Position numbers and translations under genes: made by a program. A stretch of DNA of 64,000 nt from positions 448,001 through 512,000 of the forward strand of contig CAVUZH010000014.1 in assembly GCA_963745835.1 (NCBI GenBank), given 5' to 3'. The stretch's first letter is position 1. Each line of letters begins with the position of its first letter. Positions 26,146 to 29,871 of this stretch are shown here, piece by piece. The stretch comes from an uncultured delta proteobacterium. Lineage in GTDB: Bacteria > Desulfobacterota > Binatia > UBA9968. A model generated the notes under the pieces. The model was not told the DNA's origin. It ran no database searches and was given only the letters and a program-made list of their open reading frames with translations.

Positions 26146-26625
26146 TCAATCTTTGCCCGATTGTTCCCGTAGAAAAGTCAGCACCTCTTGCGGGTGCTGA
26201 TCAGCTTTTTTGACGGTCGGCCAGTGTTTGATCACGTTGCCCCTTGAGCCGATTACCAATGTTGAGCGGATCGTGCCCTCCACGGTTTTTCCGTACATCA
26301 TCTTCTTGCCGAATGCCTGGTATTTTTTCATGACCTCGGCCTTGGGATCGGCCAAAAGCACGAACGGCAAATCGAACTTCTCAGCAAACTTCTTATGAGA
26401 AGCAATGCTGTCTTTGCTGATACCCAGAACTATCGCTCCCAGTCTTTTCATTTGCGTATTTAGCTCGCGGAACCCGCAAGCTTCCTTGGTTCAGCCCGGA
26501 GTACTGTCCTTGGGATAGAAGAATAAGACCATTTTTTGGCCGCGATAATCCTCAAGCGAATGTGTCTTGCCGTCGTGGCCTTCCAGACTGAACGCCGGCG
26601 CTTTCTGCCCCTCCAAACTCTTCAT
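26146..26625 (-). CDS. bcp: BCP/PrxQ peroxiredoxin selenoprotein, Sec45 at TGA 26493-26491
   Basis: [23 protein letters not shown]...[20 protein letters not shown] in frame with ORF 26146-26451; paralog at 28311 has TGC at the same site. Confidence 0.93.
26462..26482 (-). promoter_or_regulatory. Candidate bacterial SECIS hairpin
   Basis: AGCTTGCGG-GTT-CCGCGAGCT (9 bp with one G-U), loop 17 nt after TGA; disrupted in the Cys paralog. Confidence 0.75.
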
Positions 26626-26933
26626 GCCCAGCCTTTCTCCTCAACCGAGAATGTAGCATTCATTGTTCGAATCGGTACGCTCTTAAGAAATCAACCCAGC
26701 GAAACGGTTTGCGGCGACAAATCGGATTAGGCGCCTCGAAAAGCCGTTCGCGCTCCTGCCATGGGATTCCTGCTACACTTCGTAGGTTTCGCGAGCTTTT
26801 TCCCAGGTACTGCGCCCAAAACCTTCGCAGAAGGGTTCGTTACTCTCCGCCATACAGGTGGCGAGATCCACTAAGTACATCTCGCGGTTCTCCGATACCG
26901 CTTTCAAGAGACGACTCTTGGTAAATTATTGCT

Positions 26934-28298
26934 TTAAGTCGAAACGCAGCGAAATTTGGCGAACACATACGGATAGTGACCTTGATACCAATTGCGAAAC
27001 GTCGGTCGCAGCAGTTCCGCCGGAGTCGCCCAGGAAGCGCCCTTGAAGACGAAGTGCTTTCCATCGAAAAAATCCTTGGAGTAGTCGGGATAGCGAGGAA
27101 TATAAGGCGTGAAGCCTGGAAACGGCGCGAATGGCGTATCGGTTAACTCCCAGCCATTACCGACCAATTCTCCGATACCCCATCGGCTCACGCCGGCTGG
27201 ATGCGAGCCTACGGGATTCGGCGACCACGAGCTAAAATCGAAATTGCCATGACGATGCGCTGGAGCTAATTCGCCCCACGGATAACGCGTCGAGATTTCG
27301 TCAGGTCCGCCGTAGCAGGCGCGTTGAAACTCCGCCTCAGTCGGCAATCGCTTGCCGCGCCAGCTAGCGTAGGCACGCGCCTCAGCAACGGTCACATAGA
27401 CCGGCCAACTGGAAACCTGGGCGAGCGGAAAGAGATCGAACATCGCTTTGTAGAGCCAGAGGCTGCCCCGTTGAAGCCAAACGCTGGGATGCTTCCTGGC
27501 GGTTTGCACTTTCCAGCGCCAATCTTCCGGTCGCCAGTAACGCTCTACATCGTAAGCGCCGGACTGCACGAATTCAAAATATTCGCCATTGGTGACCGGC
27601 ATCGAATCCATCGTAAATGCCGGTACATCGACAACCGTTTGTGAAAACTCGTTGTCCCAGCCGAAGTCTAACTCGGAAAACTTTGCGCCAAGTGAAACTT
27701 TGCCGCTCTGGTATTTCCGTTGGAACGAGAACGCGCAGCCGCCTGGAAGGAATACCGTGGTGATTTGGTTGGGCGGTTTTTTTTATCAAGCGGCAGCTCA
27801 TGCATCATATACAACAGAGTTTCTTGATGCATGTATTCATGCTCGAGAACCATTTCGAAGGCGCGCCCGTTTTGTGCCATGATATCTGAGGATTCCAAAC
27901 GCGACATCATTATCGAGCGCTTCCAAGACCGCCGAGCGAACCTGGTCGCGGTATTTCAGTACTGTATGCAGATCGGGCCAGGTCTCCGGAACCTCGGGAT
28001 GCCAATGACACTCGCCAGTGTCAACGTCCGGATCGATGCCGCGACAAAACAAATCGTCGAAATAAGGATTGAAGGACTTCCACTGCAGCAGTGCGCCACA
28101 GGTTTGATTCCAGGTGAACGCAGGAAGATGTCCGACATAAAAAATAAAAGGGTGGCGCCAGACAATCGGCTTGGTTAACATCTGATCTTCGTTGATCAGA
28201 CGAAACAGCTCATCGGTCTTAGACCAAGCCGAGTGAAACCGTGCTTCGAACCTCGCCCTCTCGACGTTGACCCGCGGTACGAATGCCCGGTTCATCAC
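26934..28298 (-). CDS. EgtB/Egt1-like non-heme iron sulfoxide synthase (DinB-like + FGE-like domains), frameshifted
   Basis: RHPFIFYVGH, GIDPDVD, HEYMHQE iron motif, FGWDNE, RLPTEAE, GNGWE, RNWYQ..YPY spread over ORFs 27837-28298, 27668-27910, 26934-27611; shifts near 27910 and 27700-27720. Confidence 0.85.
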
Positions 28299-28310
28299 GA
28301 TACCCCGCCG

Positions 28311-28778
28311 TCACTTCTGGAGAAACTGCAACACTTCACGAGGATGCTCCTCCGCATTAGCAACCGGCGCCCATTGGCGTAACACCTTACCGTCAGGACC
28401 GATCACCACCGTCGAGCGAATAGCGCCTTCGACGGTTTTGCCCTCCATATTTTTCCTCTCACCCCAAGCGCCGTAAGCCTGCATAACTTTGGTTTCGGGA
28501 TCGGAAAGAAGAGTAAACGGCAAGTTATATTTAGCGATAAATTGATTGTGCGATTCGATTCCGTCTTTGCTTACGCCCAAAACGATGGCGTTGGAATTCG
28601 TCACCGAATCGATAGAATCGCGAAAGCCGCAAGCTTCCTTGGTGCAGCCCGGCGTGTCATCTTTCGGATAAAAATAAAGGATAACGCTTTTACCTCGGTA
28701 GTCGGACAAAGAATGTCGCTTGCCATCGCTGCCGTCTAAATTAAATGCCGGCGCCTGCTGTCCTTCTAAATTACTCAT
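28311..28778 (-). CDS. bcp: BCP/PrxQ peroxiredoxin (Cys form)
   Basis: [35 protein letters not shown]. Confidence 0.95.
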   Translation of the reverse strand: MSNLEGQQAPAFNLDGSDGKRHSLSDYRGKSVILYFYPKDDTPGCTKEACGFRDSIDSVTNSNAIVLGVSKDGIESHNQFIAKYNLPFTLLSDPETKVMQAYGAWGERKNMEGKTVEGAIRSTVVIGPDGKVLRQWAPVANAEEHPREVLQFLQK

Positions 28779-28959
28779 GAAGCCTCCTTCTCGGGATTTA
28801 AGCTATTTCTTTTGTCTATCATGTGTAAAGGCTCGGTCAATACAACCCGCGATAAAACTTGTGGGTTCGCATTGTCGCCCAAATAGTCGTGCCGGGAGAG
28901 TGGGCTGGAGATGTCCAGGGCGGGATCGTGGCGCGGTTATTACCCGTGGTAACCAGGAG

Positions 28960-29871
28960 CTATTTGTTTTTCAGAAACTCGCGGAATGCCTGAGCAACTG
29001 GTGATAGCGGCCGGCCCTTATAACAAACCTCGTAGAAGTCGCGGATCATCTTCAACTCGCGAATTGGAATTTCCGTAAGAAGGCCTTCAGCCAATTCACG
29101 TGCGACTGAAACGCGGGACAAAATCGAAATACCGAATCCCGAGATCAGAGCCTCTTTAACCGCCGCGGTACTTCCAAGCTCCATTGCTACACTGAGCAGG
29201 TCGTCGGCAGAACGTCGGCCCTTACTGATAAGGTGACGAAAAGAATCCAAGGTTCCCGAGCCGCGTTCCCGCGAGATGAAGTGTTCCGAACGCAAATCTG
29301 CCAGGTGAACGAATTTTCGGCGGGCCCACGGATGTGCACTCGGCACAGTGAGTACCATTTCATCCTGCCAGATCTTGTCGAAAGATAGTCTGTTCTCCGC
29401 GTTCTTGAAGCCGACGAATCCGATTTCGACTTTGCCGTCGAGCACCTCGTCCACTATGCTCGCCGAGTCGCCGATTCGCAGAATCGGCTTTACCCGAGGA
29501 TGCTTTTGGATGAATGCGGCAAGGCTATGCGGCAGTAAATATTCACCGGGAATGTTGCTGCCGCCGATCCAAAGCTCGCCGCTCAGGCTACCGTGAAAAC
29601 GCTCGATCTTAGCCACCGTTTCTCTTTTGAAAGCCAGCAGATCCTTGGCCTGTTCGAGCAGCAGTATGCCTAATGCGGTCAGAGTAACCTTCCCGGGAAT
29701 CCGATAGAACAACTTGCCGCCAAGGGTTTTTTCCAGTTCCTGGATATGCGCGCTGACTGTGGGTTGCTTCAAAGATAGCCGTTGTGCCGCTTCCGAAAAG
29801 CTTTTAAGCTCTGCTACCCAGAAGAAGACTTCGAGCTTGTGTAGATCCAAATCGCCTTTTAGTTTGCTCAT
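28960..29871 (-). CDS. LysR family regulator, CysL-like
   Basis: LysR HTH (SFSEAA..L.L.QPTVS); GSNIPGEYLLP, RERGSGT, ELGSTAAVK. Confidence 0.92.
   Translation of the reverse strand: MSKLKGDLDLHKLEVFFWVAELKSFSEAAQRLSLKQPTVSAHIQELEKTLGGKLFYRIPGKVTLTALGILLLEQAKDLLAFKRETVAKIERFHGSLSGELWIGGSNIPGEYLLPHSLAAFIQKHPRVKPILRIGDSASIVDEVLDGKVEIGFVGFKNAENRLSFDKIWQDEMVLTVPSAHPWARRKFVHLADLRSEHFISRERGSGTLDSFRHLISKGRRSADDLLSVAMELGSTAAVKEALISGFGISILSRVSVARELAEGLLTEIPIRELKMIRDFYEVCYKGRPLSPVAQAFREFLKNK

Follow-up and report, generated by a model that had tools for sequence, protein, structure and literature searches.

What does it mean that, in an uncultured soil Binatia bacterium, a gene for an enzyme resembling ergothioneine synthases lies between a cysteine and a selenocysteine version of the same peroxidase, beside a regulator of a selenium-associated family? 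The initial annotation of the window analysed here, a 64 kb stretch of DNA, saw in this locus a module pairing a thio/seleno-histidine synthase with interchangeable sulfur and selenium peroxidases. We favour, with a probability of roughly 65%, a Binatia-specific antioxidant block in which a LysR_Se regulator stands beside an operon of a Cys-PrxQ, a sulfur-type, EgtB type IV-like enzyme and a Sec-PrxQ, the frameshifts that interrupt the enzyme gene being consensus errors.

The open-reading frames bear out the gene order first described, LysR, BCP(Cys), EgtB-like gene and BCP(TGA), with all four genes present on the minus strand. The regulator, with HTH_1 and LysR_substrate domains, occupies 28960..29871 (its reading frame, 29928..28960, opens at a TTG at 29928, yet translation probably begins at the ATG at 29871), and is followed on the same strand by PrxQ/BCP(Cys) at 28311..28778 (catalytic Cys in PKDDTPGCTKEAC; AhpC-TSA, 135 bits), by the EgtB-like sulfoxide synthase at 26934..28295 (28298 from a GTG), whose pieces match DinB_2 and FGE-sulfatase, by the remnant of a PhnD-like periplasmic substrate-binding protein at 26700..26907, recognised by alignment with relatives, and by PrxQ/BCP(Sec) at 26146..26625. 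The 12 bp spacing reported between BCP and the EgtB-like gene is correct to the GTG; measured to the ATG it is 15 nt, and relatives keep this ATG as their start, since the related genome G004 has GTA where the source has GTG. The three genes downstream of the regulator may be co-transcribed, in which case transcription could not set the two peroxidases separately. On the plus strand, transcribed away from the LysR gene, a GcvT/YgfZ-like folate-binding protein (29959..31062; GCV_T and GCV_T_C domains) scores 76.9 bits with the YgfZ/CAF17 model (cut-off 49) and falls under the cut-offs of the GcvT models, with a sigma-70-like site at 29922-29950; a small Rieske [2Fe-2S] ferredoxin-like protein (31192..31497, plus strand) belongs with it to a conserved Binatia synteny block, and a second peroxiredoxin, of AhpC/Prx type, lies beyond at 31568..32035 on the minus strand.

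This order is kept in relatives, where the EgtB-like ortholog lies beside a BCP gene, a LysR gene or both in 8 of the 8 published genomes that have the ortholog, and the layout Prx-EgtB-Prx-LysR was found only in Binatia. Our literature search found no description of an EgtB between a Cys/Sec PrxQ pair beside a selenium-family LysR. The locus is thus a new arrangement of known parts (EgtB, Sec-peroxiredoxin, LysR_Se, sen cluster), and what is new is the displacement of EgtB from egtD to between the Cys/Sec PrxQ pair by a selenium-family LysR, in a genome that also codes for selenoneine synthesis.

The TGA of the second BCP, claimed to stand at the catalytic site, is codon 45 (26493..26491) in the context PKDSTPG-U-TKEAC, in which P-KDS-T-PG-U (codons 38-45) gives the motif PxxxTxxU published for Sec peroxiredoxins (PMC13188914); the protein matches AhpC-TSA with 131 bits. 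A SECIS-like hairpin at 26462..26482 (minus strand), with a 9-bp stem and a GUU loop, begins 8 nt past the UGA and folds at -15.8 kcal/mol, and folding of the Cys paralog gave no such hairpin at the equivalent place. All 8 TGA copies carry the GGGTTCC apex of this hairpin, against none of the 10 Cys copies examined, and it arises through synonymous Gly and Phe codons seen only in the TGA copies; searched against Rfam, the hairpin matched no family. The genome-wide profile searches that the annotation had called for placed selA (608.6 bits), selB (394.3) and selD (383.4), all above their cut-offs, on contig C22, outside the window, and the source genome also has a tRNA-Sec. On this comparative evidence we take the TGA at codon 45 to be a genuine selenocysteine codon. 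The Sec-PrxQ would be made only when SelA, SelB and SelD decode its UGA, aided by the hairpin 3' of it, and the Cys-PrxQ would be its selenium-independent stand-in, both paralogs presumably reducing peroxides. The two are ~59% identical, and PrxQ/BCP(Cys) finds its best matches among PrxQ and thiol-peroxidase models, though under their equivalog cut-offs.

With the Sec-containing peroxiredoxins, among them PrxU of Eubacterium acidaminophilum (cited in PMC13188914), the Sec-PrxQ shares the AhpC-TSA fold, a peroxidatic Sec in PxxxTxxU and a SECIS directly after the UGA. It differs in belonging to the PrxQ/BCP subtype, in its resolving Cys five positions past the Sec (U45...C50) and in being paired with a Cys twin within one operon, and it scores only 45 bits with the PrxU model. 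The idea of interchangeable sulfur and selenium peroxidases is upheld by the comparison of genomes, in which the Sec/Cys state of the two PrxQ paralogs swaps between Binatia lineages; across these lineages the pair provides a clear natural set of replacements in both directions, Cys to Sec and Sec to Cys, in which a SECIS is gained or lost via synonymous codons alone, and should be useful for studying how selenoproteins originate. The second peroxiredoxin, unrelated to the PrxQ twins, is also a selenoprotein: its TGA (codon 47, 31897..31895, in PLDFTGGU) is kept in all Binatia loci holding the gene and is followed by structured RNA (z = -2.2).

The central enzyme of the locus has a DinB-like N-domain and an FGE-like C-domain in ~450 aa, without a methyltransferase domain. 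Intact orthologs in same-genus genomes have reading frames of 457-465 aa and give a 452-aa protein from the conserved ATG. When the intact ortholog was compared with solved structures, EgtB-IV 8vih was the best match (216 bits), followed by OvoA (151), OvsA (107) and SenA (84). Aligned to OvoA 8KHQ, the ortholog keeps R62, Y68, H71, D103, H162, H166 and Y406: H56, H152 and H156 form the three-His triad (OvoA H71, H162, H166), Y401 corresponds to the catalytic Y406, and R47, Y53 and D88 take the places of the cysteine-site residues R62, Y68 and D103. The composite motif, R-x-Y-H..D-x-H-x-H-Y-Y-N-W-Y, resembles the published EgtB-IV motif RxYH--DxHxHYxNWFx, and all 17 clade members compared share the triad, the tyrosine and the motif residues. 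At the hercynine site all Binatia members have N434-W435-Y436; among egtD-adjacent relatives NWF is the usual form and NWY a rare one. In a tree the Binatia sequences group together with SH-aLRT 99, inside a set of relatives whose genes adjoin egtD; in other phyla, egtD lies beside the gene at 67 of 80 loci of the clade.

Three NCBIfam models, SenA, ovoA_Nterm and EgtB-I, all leave the window enzyme under their cut-offs. A SenA or OvsA identity was rejected on a score of 220.3 bits against 420 and on the residues RxYH--Dx in place of xNEH--HR (the source genome's own SenA shows xxEH--H in the same alignment); OvoA on 271.6 bits against 400, on NWY rather than YAF and on the missing methyltransferase domain; and EgtB type I (TIGR03440) on 221.9 bits against 360 and on D-x at the R-R positions of the gamma-glutamylcysteine site. 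With EgtB-IV (8VIH, 8VIG) the enzyme shares the DinB and FGE fold, the three-His iron site, the catalytic Tyr, the OvoA-like R/Y/D cysteine site and the Asn-Trp hercynine signature, as well as its size, the lack of a methyltransferase domain and the position of most clade members beside egtD. It differs in having Tyr rather than Phe at motif position 16, a conservative change, but one that the published EgtB-IV criterion, read strictly, does not admit, in an extra invariant C...CHWH stretch of the clade's DinB domain (C84, C96-H97-W98-H99) where EgtB-IV has a gap, and in the location of the Binatia gene, apart from egtD and between peroxiredoxin genes. Judged by these residues, the enzyme is type IV EgtB-like and of the sulfur type, not a selenium enzyme; of the earlier description the Egt1/EgtB-like character stands, by motif and structure match, and the seleno-histidine link, set against the R/Y/D cysteine site, does not. 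The annotation had named an ordinary EgtB without a selenium link as an outcome that would count against it, and this is what we find for the enzyme, not for the locus.

From its residues and relatives we infer that the enzyme would couple L-cysteine to hercynine with O2 at the three-His iron site. The hercynine would be supplied by the genome's single EgtD, which a profile search (296.6 bits; cut-off 290.9) placed on contig C3, outside the window; 38 of 41 genomes from this order have egtD. Locus analysis on the same contig showed SenA (494.8 bits) and SenB (397.9 bits), with egtD, senA and senB lying together. As in the SenA/SenB/SenC cluster (Kayrouz et al.), the source genome holds a real senA-senB pair with egtD, plus selD, and one EgtD could feed its hercynine both to ergothioneine at the present locus and to selenoneine at the sen locus. 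An EgtE-type C-S lyase, which would carry out the final step to ergothioneine, was not found in the genome (best match 88.9 bits against a cut-off of 400).

Of the other readings of the enzyme, that it forms C-Se bonds, as a SenA/OvsA-like or Sec-using partner of the selenium and sulfur peroxidases, seems to us very improbable. It adjoins a Sec-peroxiredoxin and a selenium-associated LysR in an organism rich in selenium use (at least three selenoproteins plus the sen cluster), and free selenocysteine could in principle fill the cysteine site. SenA and OvsA (bioRxiv 10.1101/2024.04.10.588772) are of the same NHISS superfamily. Unlike them, however, the window enzyme lacks the selenosugar-site residues and scores far below the SenA cut-off, their structures are its weakest NHISS matches, the sen genes lie on another contig, where SenA and SenB are already encoded, and at the loci of its clade relatives egtD is the only partner, the flanks giving no senB match. 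A switch of acceptor, by which an egtD-uncoupled NWY enzyme would thiolate free histidine or another imidazole (e.g. to 2-thiohistidine) instead of hercynine, is also unlikely, if somewhat less so. The gene is away from egtD in all Binatia loci, the clade has the extra Cys and His residues that EgtB-IV lacks, and motif position 16 carries a Tyr that, by description, resembles AshA Y528, a residue said in section 9 of PMC13674229 to hydrogen-bond the free amino group of histidine. Yet the Asn-Trp hercynine signature is kept, at a place occupied by Ala in OvoA and OvsA, which accept histidine. NWY also occurs in egtD-adjacent sequences such as that of Sorangium (L096), either F or Y is tolerated at these positions by SenA, which uses hercynine, and egtD is present in the source genome. 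More weight, though still well short of an even chance, is due to the reading that in the source strain the EgtB-like gene has recently become a genuine pseudogene, in a decaying locus where only the peroxiredoxins and LysR function. Relative to four same-genus orthologs, the gene has three one-base insertions, at ~27908, 27727 and 27709, none in a homopolymer, and its N- and C-terminal parts share a frame with stops between. Some decay of the locus is genuine: the PhnD-like gene, intact in G004 (Phosphonate-bd, 139 bits), has lost ~620 nt relative to G004, G005 and G006, and contigs of three independent runs span the junction with 0-3 differences. Two other Binatia metagenome-assembled loci, L049 and L061, hold frameshifted EgtB copies too, but the neighbour genes of L049 also give truncated matches and one L061 shift is an extra A in an A-run. 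The insertions themselves are missing from every independent contig that covers them, the base at 27907 in 4 of 4 metagenome runs and those at 27709 and 27726/7 in 2 of 2, the first site being covered by a ~99%-identical contig and the other two by ~91-93% ones only. The three open-reading frame pieces together still code for every catalytic residue, and dN/dS of the source copy against relatives is 0.11-0.12, equal to that of most intact ortholog pairs, with no relaxed selection. In the assembly as a whole, 23 of 272 reading frames intact in G004 are split (~8.5% of those tested), with five of the 23 broken at more than one place, and apparent pseudogenes in this assembly should not be taken at face value. 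The dead gene that the annotation had allowed for is unlikely on these data, and the three frameshifts are probably consensus errors in an intact sulfur-type EgtB gene.

The regulator had been called a CysL-like LysR, a type with some members linked to selenium genes, and it does fall in the selenium-associated family NF040786, scoring 267.5 bits against a cut-off of 250 in a match that starts at residue 27 of the long reading frame; the next family, YeiE (171.8 bits against 480), stays under its cut-off, and OxyR (90 against 329) far under. Going by the names, NF040786 would be the family of LysR_Se, treated in PMC5322559, where HrsM represses Cys isoforms when selenium is available. HrsM controls Sec/Cys hydrogenase isoforms in that account, and the LysR of the window likewise lies beside a Sec/Cys isoenzyme pair, but its neighbours are antioxidant genes, not selA, selB or selD. 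By analogy with this archaeal ortholog, the regulator would most likely tie expression of the block to selenium status, with peroxide sensing as the alternative. That alternative, an OxyR-like regulator of a plain oxidative-stress regulon in which the Sec codons are incidental, is a real possibility, although we doubt it: the cargo is all antioxidant or Fe-S-repair (three peroxiredoxins, EgtB and the YgfZ-like protein), the OxyR model also matches, more weakly, and the LysR persists where the PrxQ copies are Cys-only, but the selenium-family cut-off is passed and a Sec-Prx, the second peroxiredoxin, is present in each Binatia locus whose sequence extends to that point. The LysR is present both at L034, where both PrxQ copies are Cys, and at L035, where both are Sec, and its role is therefore not simply the choice between Cys and Sec isoforms. 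We consider it improbable that LysR_Se goes further and acts as a bacterial counterpart of HrsM that reads selenium status and balances Cys- against Sec-PrxQ and ergothioneine against selenoneine from one EgtD pool, the Cys/Sec swaps being the trace of such tuning. If regulation is selenium-dependent, the antioxidant block would offer a small, testable example of sulfur antioxidants substituted for selenium ones in a bacterium. A promoter-like block 5' of BCP(Cys), 28814..28840 on the minus strand, is the sole well-conserved block among six aligned same-genus intergenic regions; it consists of a TTGACC hexamer and then an imperfect dyad (CTCTAT-N5-ATAGAG in relatives, degenerate in the source genome), which is a candidate LysR operator.

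The initial annotation described four same-strand genes, a LysR regulator, a BCP (a PrxQ-type peroxiredoxin) with Cys, an EgtB-like enzyme and a BCP with TGA at the catalytic site, and open-reading frames and Pfam domains bear out this order on the minus strand of the window (G000:C14:448001-512000, from a 7.28 Mb assembly, G000, of 25 contigs). The LysR-family gene (ORF 29928..28960, likely ATG at 29871; HTH_1 and LysR_substrate) is followed by a 155 aa BCP/PrxQ with a catalytic Cys (28778..28311; AhpC-TSA), the EgtB-like gene in three ORF pieces (28298/28295..26934; DinB_2 and FGE-sulfatase) and a second BCP/PrxQ (26625..26146; AhpC-TSA), in which the TGA is codon 45, the peroxidatic position. 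Genes for a GcvT/YgfZ-like folate-binding protein and a small Rieske ferredoxin (29959-31497) lie on the plus strand, divergent from LysR, and a third peroxiredoxin of another AhpC/Prx-like subtype (Prx2, minus strand, 32035..31568) has TGA as catalytic codon 47, in PLDFTGGU. At 26700-26907 lies what remains of a gene for a PhnD-like periplasmic binding protein; this gene is intact in the same-genus genomes G004 and G005 and carries many small indels in G006, and the intact G004 protein weakly matches a "putative selenate ABC transporter substrate-binding protein" model (54.8 bits, cut-off 250).

Protein searches with the enzyme returned thousands of relatives, the closest of ~450 aa and mostly auto-named EgtB. 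A context scan using one genome per species yielded 80 loci. The gene has egtD as its immediate neighbour in 67 of them, which span Acidobacteriota, Methylomirabilota, Gemmatimonadota, Planctomycetota, Verrucomicrobiota and a cultured Sorangium, among others. The order LysR, BCP, enzyme, BCP recurs in nine loci, all Binatia-type, of which three are not independent because L031, L032 and L033 were taken to be G005:C121, G006:C9 and G004:C12, whilst the remaining four loci have neither context. In the Binatia-type arrangement the Prx2(Sec), Rieske and GcvT-like genes are upstream and divergent, and some of the nine loci have a DUF427 gene and the PhnD-like gene between the enzyme and the second BCP. 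At ≥58% identity, a window-type enzyme was found in 9 of 40 relatives (8 of 38 without unpublished genomes). A quick maximum-likelihood IQ-TREE tree of the enzyme (83 rows, SH-aLRT support only, two SenA sequences as root, the frameshifted or truncated rows L049, L061 and L090 excluded) united the ten Binatia enzymes in one clade (SH-aLRT 99), the sister of which (98) consists of egtD-adjacent sequences of Methylomirabilota, Rokubacteria and Verrucomicrobiia. The simplest reading would be that an ordinary egtB, linked to egtD, moved once, in an ancestor of these Binatia, into an operon of peroxiredoxin genes.

The locus is a moderately interesting variant of known systems, conserved in and specific to Binatia. 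Its parts are of known kinds (a type IV-like EgtB, Sec-peroxiredoxins, LysR_Se and, elsewhere in the genome, a sen cluster); what is new is the arrangement itself and the repeated Sec/Cys swapping between the twin PrxQ genes. The initial annotation knew of no description of the arrangement, and among the literature matches listed, judged on titles and abstracts, none reported egtB in an operon with peroxiredoxins, nor did any of those listed bring Binatia or Binatota together with selenium or ergothioneine terms. Table 1 of Abbott et al. 2026, which gives gene families ≤5 kb from genes of the NHISS superfamily (which holds EgtB, OvoA, SenA and OvsA), includes neither peroxiredoxin nor LysR (PMC13674229). 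DUF427 stands in the same table at 5.7%, which agrees with its position beside both the Binatia enzyme and some egtD genes: it follows the EgtB-like gene in several Binatia (L017:5114-5392 from G003, L034, L035, L049 and L061) and egtD in L064, L065, L100, L108 and L109, with some Acidobacteriota showing egtB-egtD-DUF427, and is absent from the loci of G000, G004, G005 and G006.

We classified the enzyme from the intact, 452 aa G004 ortholog, which reached no curated NCBIfam cut-off among ovoA_Nterm (271.6 bits, cut-off 400), EgtB (221.9, cut-off 360) and SenA (220.3, cut-off 420). Against solved structures its best matches were EgtB-IV 8vih (216 bits), EgtB-I 4x8b (199) and EgtB-IV 8vig (182), with weaker matches to OvoA 8khq (151), OvsA (107) and SenA (84). 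The methods of Kayrouz et al. define a 17-position composite motif for each NHISS subfamily, RxYH--DxHxHYxNWFx for EgtB-IV and xNEH--HR... for SenA/OvsA, with Ala at the Trp position in histidine acceptors and a bulky aromatic residue there in hercynine acceptors (bioRxiv 10.1101/2024.04.10.588772). For OvoA 8KHQ, the iron ligands are given as H71, H162 and H166, the cysteine contacts as R62 and Y68, and the catalytic residue as Y406 (PMC10696552). HMMER alignments place Binatia R47, Y53 and H56 on OvoA R62, Y68 and H71, D88 on D103, H152 and H156 on H162 and H166, and Y401 on Y406, whilst N434-W435-Y436 stands against N-W-F in EgtB-IV and Y-A-F in OvoA; the motif residues do not vary among the 17 clade members compared. 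The aligned residues therefore spell the EgtB-IV motif save for one change, Tyr instead of Phe, and are unlike the motif of SenA/OvsA. NWY occurs in all Binatia and a few egtD-adjacent sequences (including L096 of Sorangium), NWF in most egtD-adjacent sequences, and the NWY class may already stand among the "other" NHISS subfamilies in the supplements of Kayrouz et al. 2024. The enzyme is predicted to be a sulfur-type EgtB and not a selenium enzyme, so that of the S/Se antioxidant locus proposed in the initial annotation the conserved locus stands, whilst selenium chemistry of the enzyme is not borne out. In the DinB domain, residue 84 is an invariant Cys and residues 96-99 read Cys-His-Trp-His (DTGECHWHP; intact ortholog L014:4753-6108), a stretch at ~28000-28050 of the window where solved EgtB-IV sequences have a gap; these could form a second metal or redox site.

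Alignment of the G000 gene to four same-genus orthologs (G001, G004, G005 and G006) located three one-base insertions, at ~27908, ~27727 and ~27709, none of them within a homopolymer; the N- and C-terminal ends are read in the same frame and are separated by a stretch that holds stop codons. The orthologs of G004, G005 and G006 read through with no shift, on which ground we rejected programmed frameshifting as the cause, and that of G001 matched in two pieces and has a 42-base tandem duplication. The gene might be dead, a real and very recent pseudogene in the G000 strain, and the neighbouring PhnD-like gene has indeed lost ~620 nt in a genuine deletion, the junction being bridged by contigs of three runs with 0-3 differences. 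However, contigs of four independent metagenome runs aligned to the stretch support none of the three insertions: the extra base at 27907 is missing in every covering contig of all four runs (one with only 3 mismatches in 264 bases), and those at 27709 and 27726/27727 in every covering contig of the two runs with cover, where the contigs are only ~91-93% identical to G000. Decay of the gene is also at odds with dN/dS, which between G000 and three of the four relatives is 0.11-0.12 (0.20 against G001), similar to the values among the intact orthologs of G004, G005 and G006 (0.11-0.135).

The G000 assembly moreover splits other genes. The test set comprised 272 ORFs of ≥200 aa, each intact in G004 (a short-read-style assembly; 20 contig stretches, L111-L130) and matched at ≥80% identity in G000; 25 were flagged as frame-split in G000, and removal of two tandem-paralog cross-hits left 23 of 272 (8.5%), a one-directional measure because the ORFs were picked for being intact in G004. 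Five of the 23 break at two or more places. We therefore favour consensus errors, at about 80%, as the source of the frameshifts, which are probably artefacts, and regard a real pseudogene as unlikely. With ~8.5% of G004-intact ORFs frame-split, apparent pseudogenes in this assembly should be checked against reads before acceptance. The EgtB-like copies of two other Binatia MAGs are also frameshifted (L049:6001-7238 and L061:6001-7297); one of the L061 shifts comes from an A added to a run of A's, and in L049 the neighbouring LysR and BCP genes also give truncated hits.

In G000 a hairpin begins 8 nt past the UGA of the downstream BCP, its 9-bp stem capped by a GUU loop; at the equivalent place the Cys twin lacks one. 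Rfam returned one tRNA and no SECIS family in the whole window, a null result that does not count against the hairpin because Rfam may hold no bacterial SECIS model. The apex GGGTTCC, built from synonymous codon choices, GGG for Gly and TTC for Phe, is present in eight of eight TGA copies and in none of the ten Cys copies with DNA read, which have GGC, GGA or GGT and then TTT or TTC-A. The initial annotation had supposed interchangeable S and Se peroxidases, and the state of the twins does vary across Binatia: the upstream copy is Cys and the downstream Sec in G000, G004, G005 and G006, both are Cys in G003 and L034, both are Sec in L035, the upstream is Sec and the downstream Cys in L049 and L061, and a single Cys copy is found in G019, G020, L036 and L090. 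A small BCP tree has two paralog clades with Sec members in each, which implies at least two independent Sec/Cys switches. Prx2 has the TGA in every Binatia locus holding the 5' part of the gene, and both it and the Sec-BCP match PxxxTxxU, the motif given for the known Prx selenoprotein family in a review (PMC13188914). Ergothioneine as reductant of the PrxQ pair was set aside, as both copies keep the resolving Cys of thioredoxin-dependent PrxQ.

The regulator passes NF040786, "selenium metabolism-associated LysR" (267.5 bits, cut-off 250), which we infer to be the LysR_Se of Lin et al. 2015, a subfamily described there as occurring only in organisms with SelD; in the same account the archaeal ortholog, HrsM, acts in the presence of selenium as a repressor of the Cys-containing hydrogenase isoforms, with selenophosphate as the proposed effector (PMC5322559). 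Across six same-genus genomes the sole conserved block upstream of BCP(Cys) is a TTGACC hexamer and then a dyad, degenerate in G000 (28814-28840). A promoter scan gave no minus-strand sigma-70-like site ahead of BCP(Cys), and a plus-strand one (29922-29950) preceding the GcvT-like gene. Six RNA runs contained only small shares of the stretch. The GcvT/YgfZ-like and Rieske genes, kept in the Binatia block, could be the regulator's classical divergent target. From the gene identities, Sec decoding signals, motif class and synteny, all identified directly, we propose that the enzyme would make hercynyl-cysteine sulfoxide en route to ergothioneine, that the three operon genes, which look co-transcribed, would be co-expressed, and that LysR may couple them to selenium status or to peroxide. 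Lineages with two Cys or two Sec PrxQ copies also have the regulator, which together with the apparent co-transcription argues against a plain Sec-or-Cys switch; the Sec copy would then depend on selenium through translation, via UGA decoding, and not through transcription.

Genes that the initial annotation had suggested seeking outside the window are present elsewhere in G000. EgtD is encoded by a single copy (C3:1102405-1103301; 296.6 bits, cut-off 290.9) in a full selenoneine-type cluster (L023, G000:C3:1102405-1109840) of egtD, an FGE-like gene, GlcNAcase, SenA, SenB and a transporter, with the GH84-like GlcNAcase (beta-N-acetylglucosaminidase), SenA (494.8 bits, cut-off 420), SenB (397.9, cut-off 300) and AmpG-family MFS transporter ~3 kb downstream of egtD. 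The selA, selB and selD genes lie together (G000:C22:65479-70161) and tRNA-Sec is on C13; no EgtE lyase match above cut-off was found in the genome. Within the order, egtD is present in 38 of 41 genomes (36 of 39 without the unpublished G012 and G018). The co-occurrence of egtD, EgtB and the sen cluster in one genome suggests that hercynine could be made once and sent to either branch, and the organism appears able to route one hercynine supply to sulfur or selenium. The selD gene has one in-frame TGA, so SelD is probably itself Sec-containing. Within the C3 cluster, the FGE-like gene is short and on the opposite strand, and the GlcNAcase beside senA might act on the Se-GlcNAc moiety.
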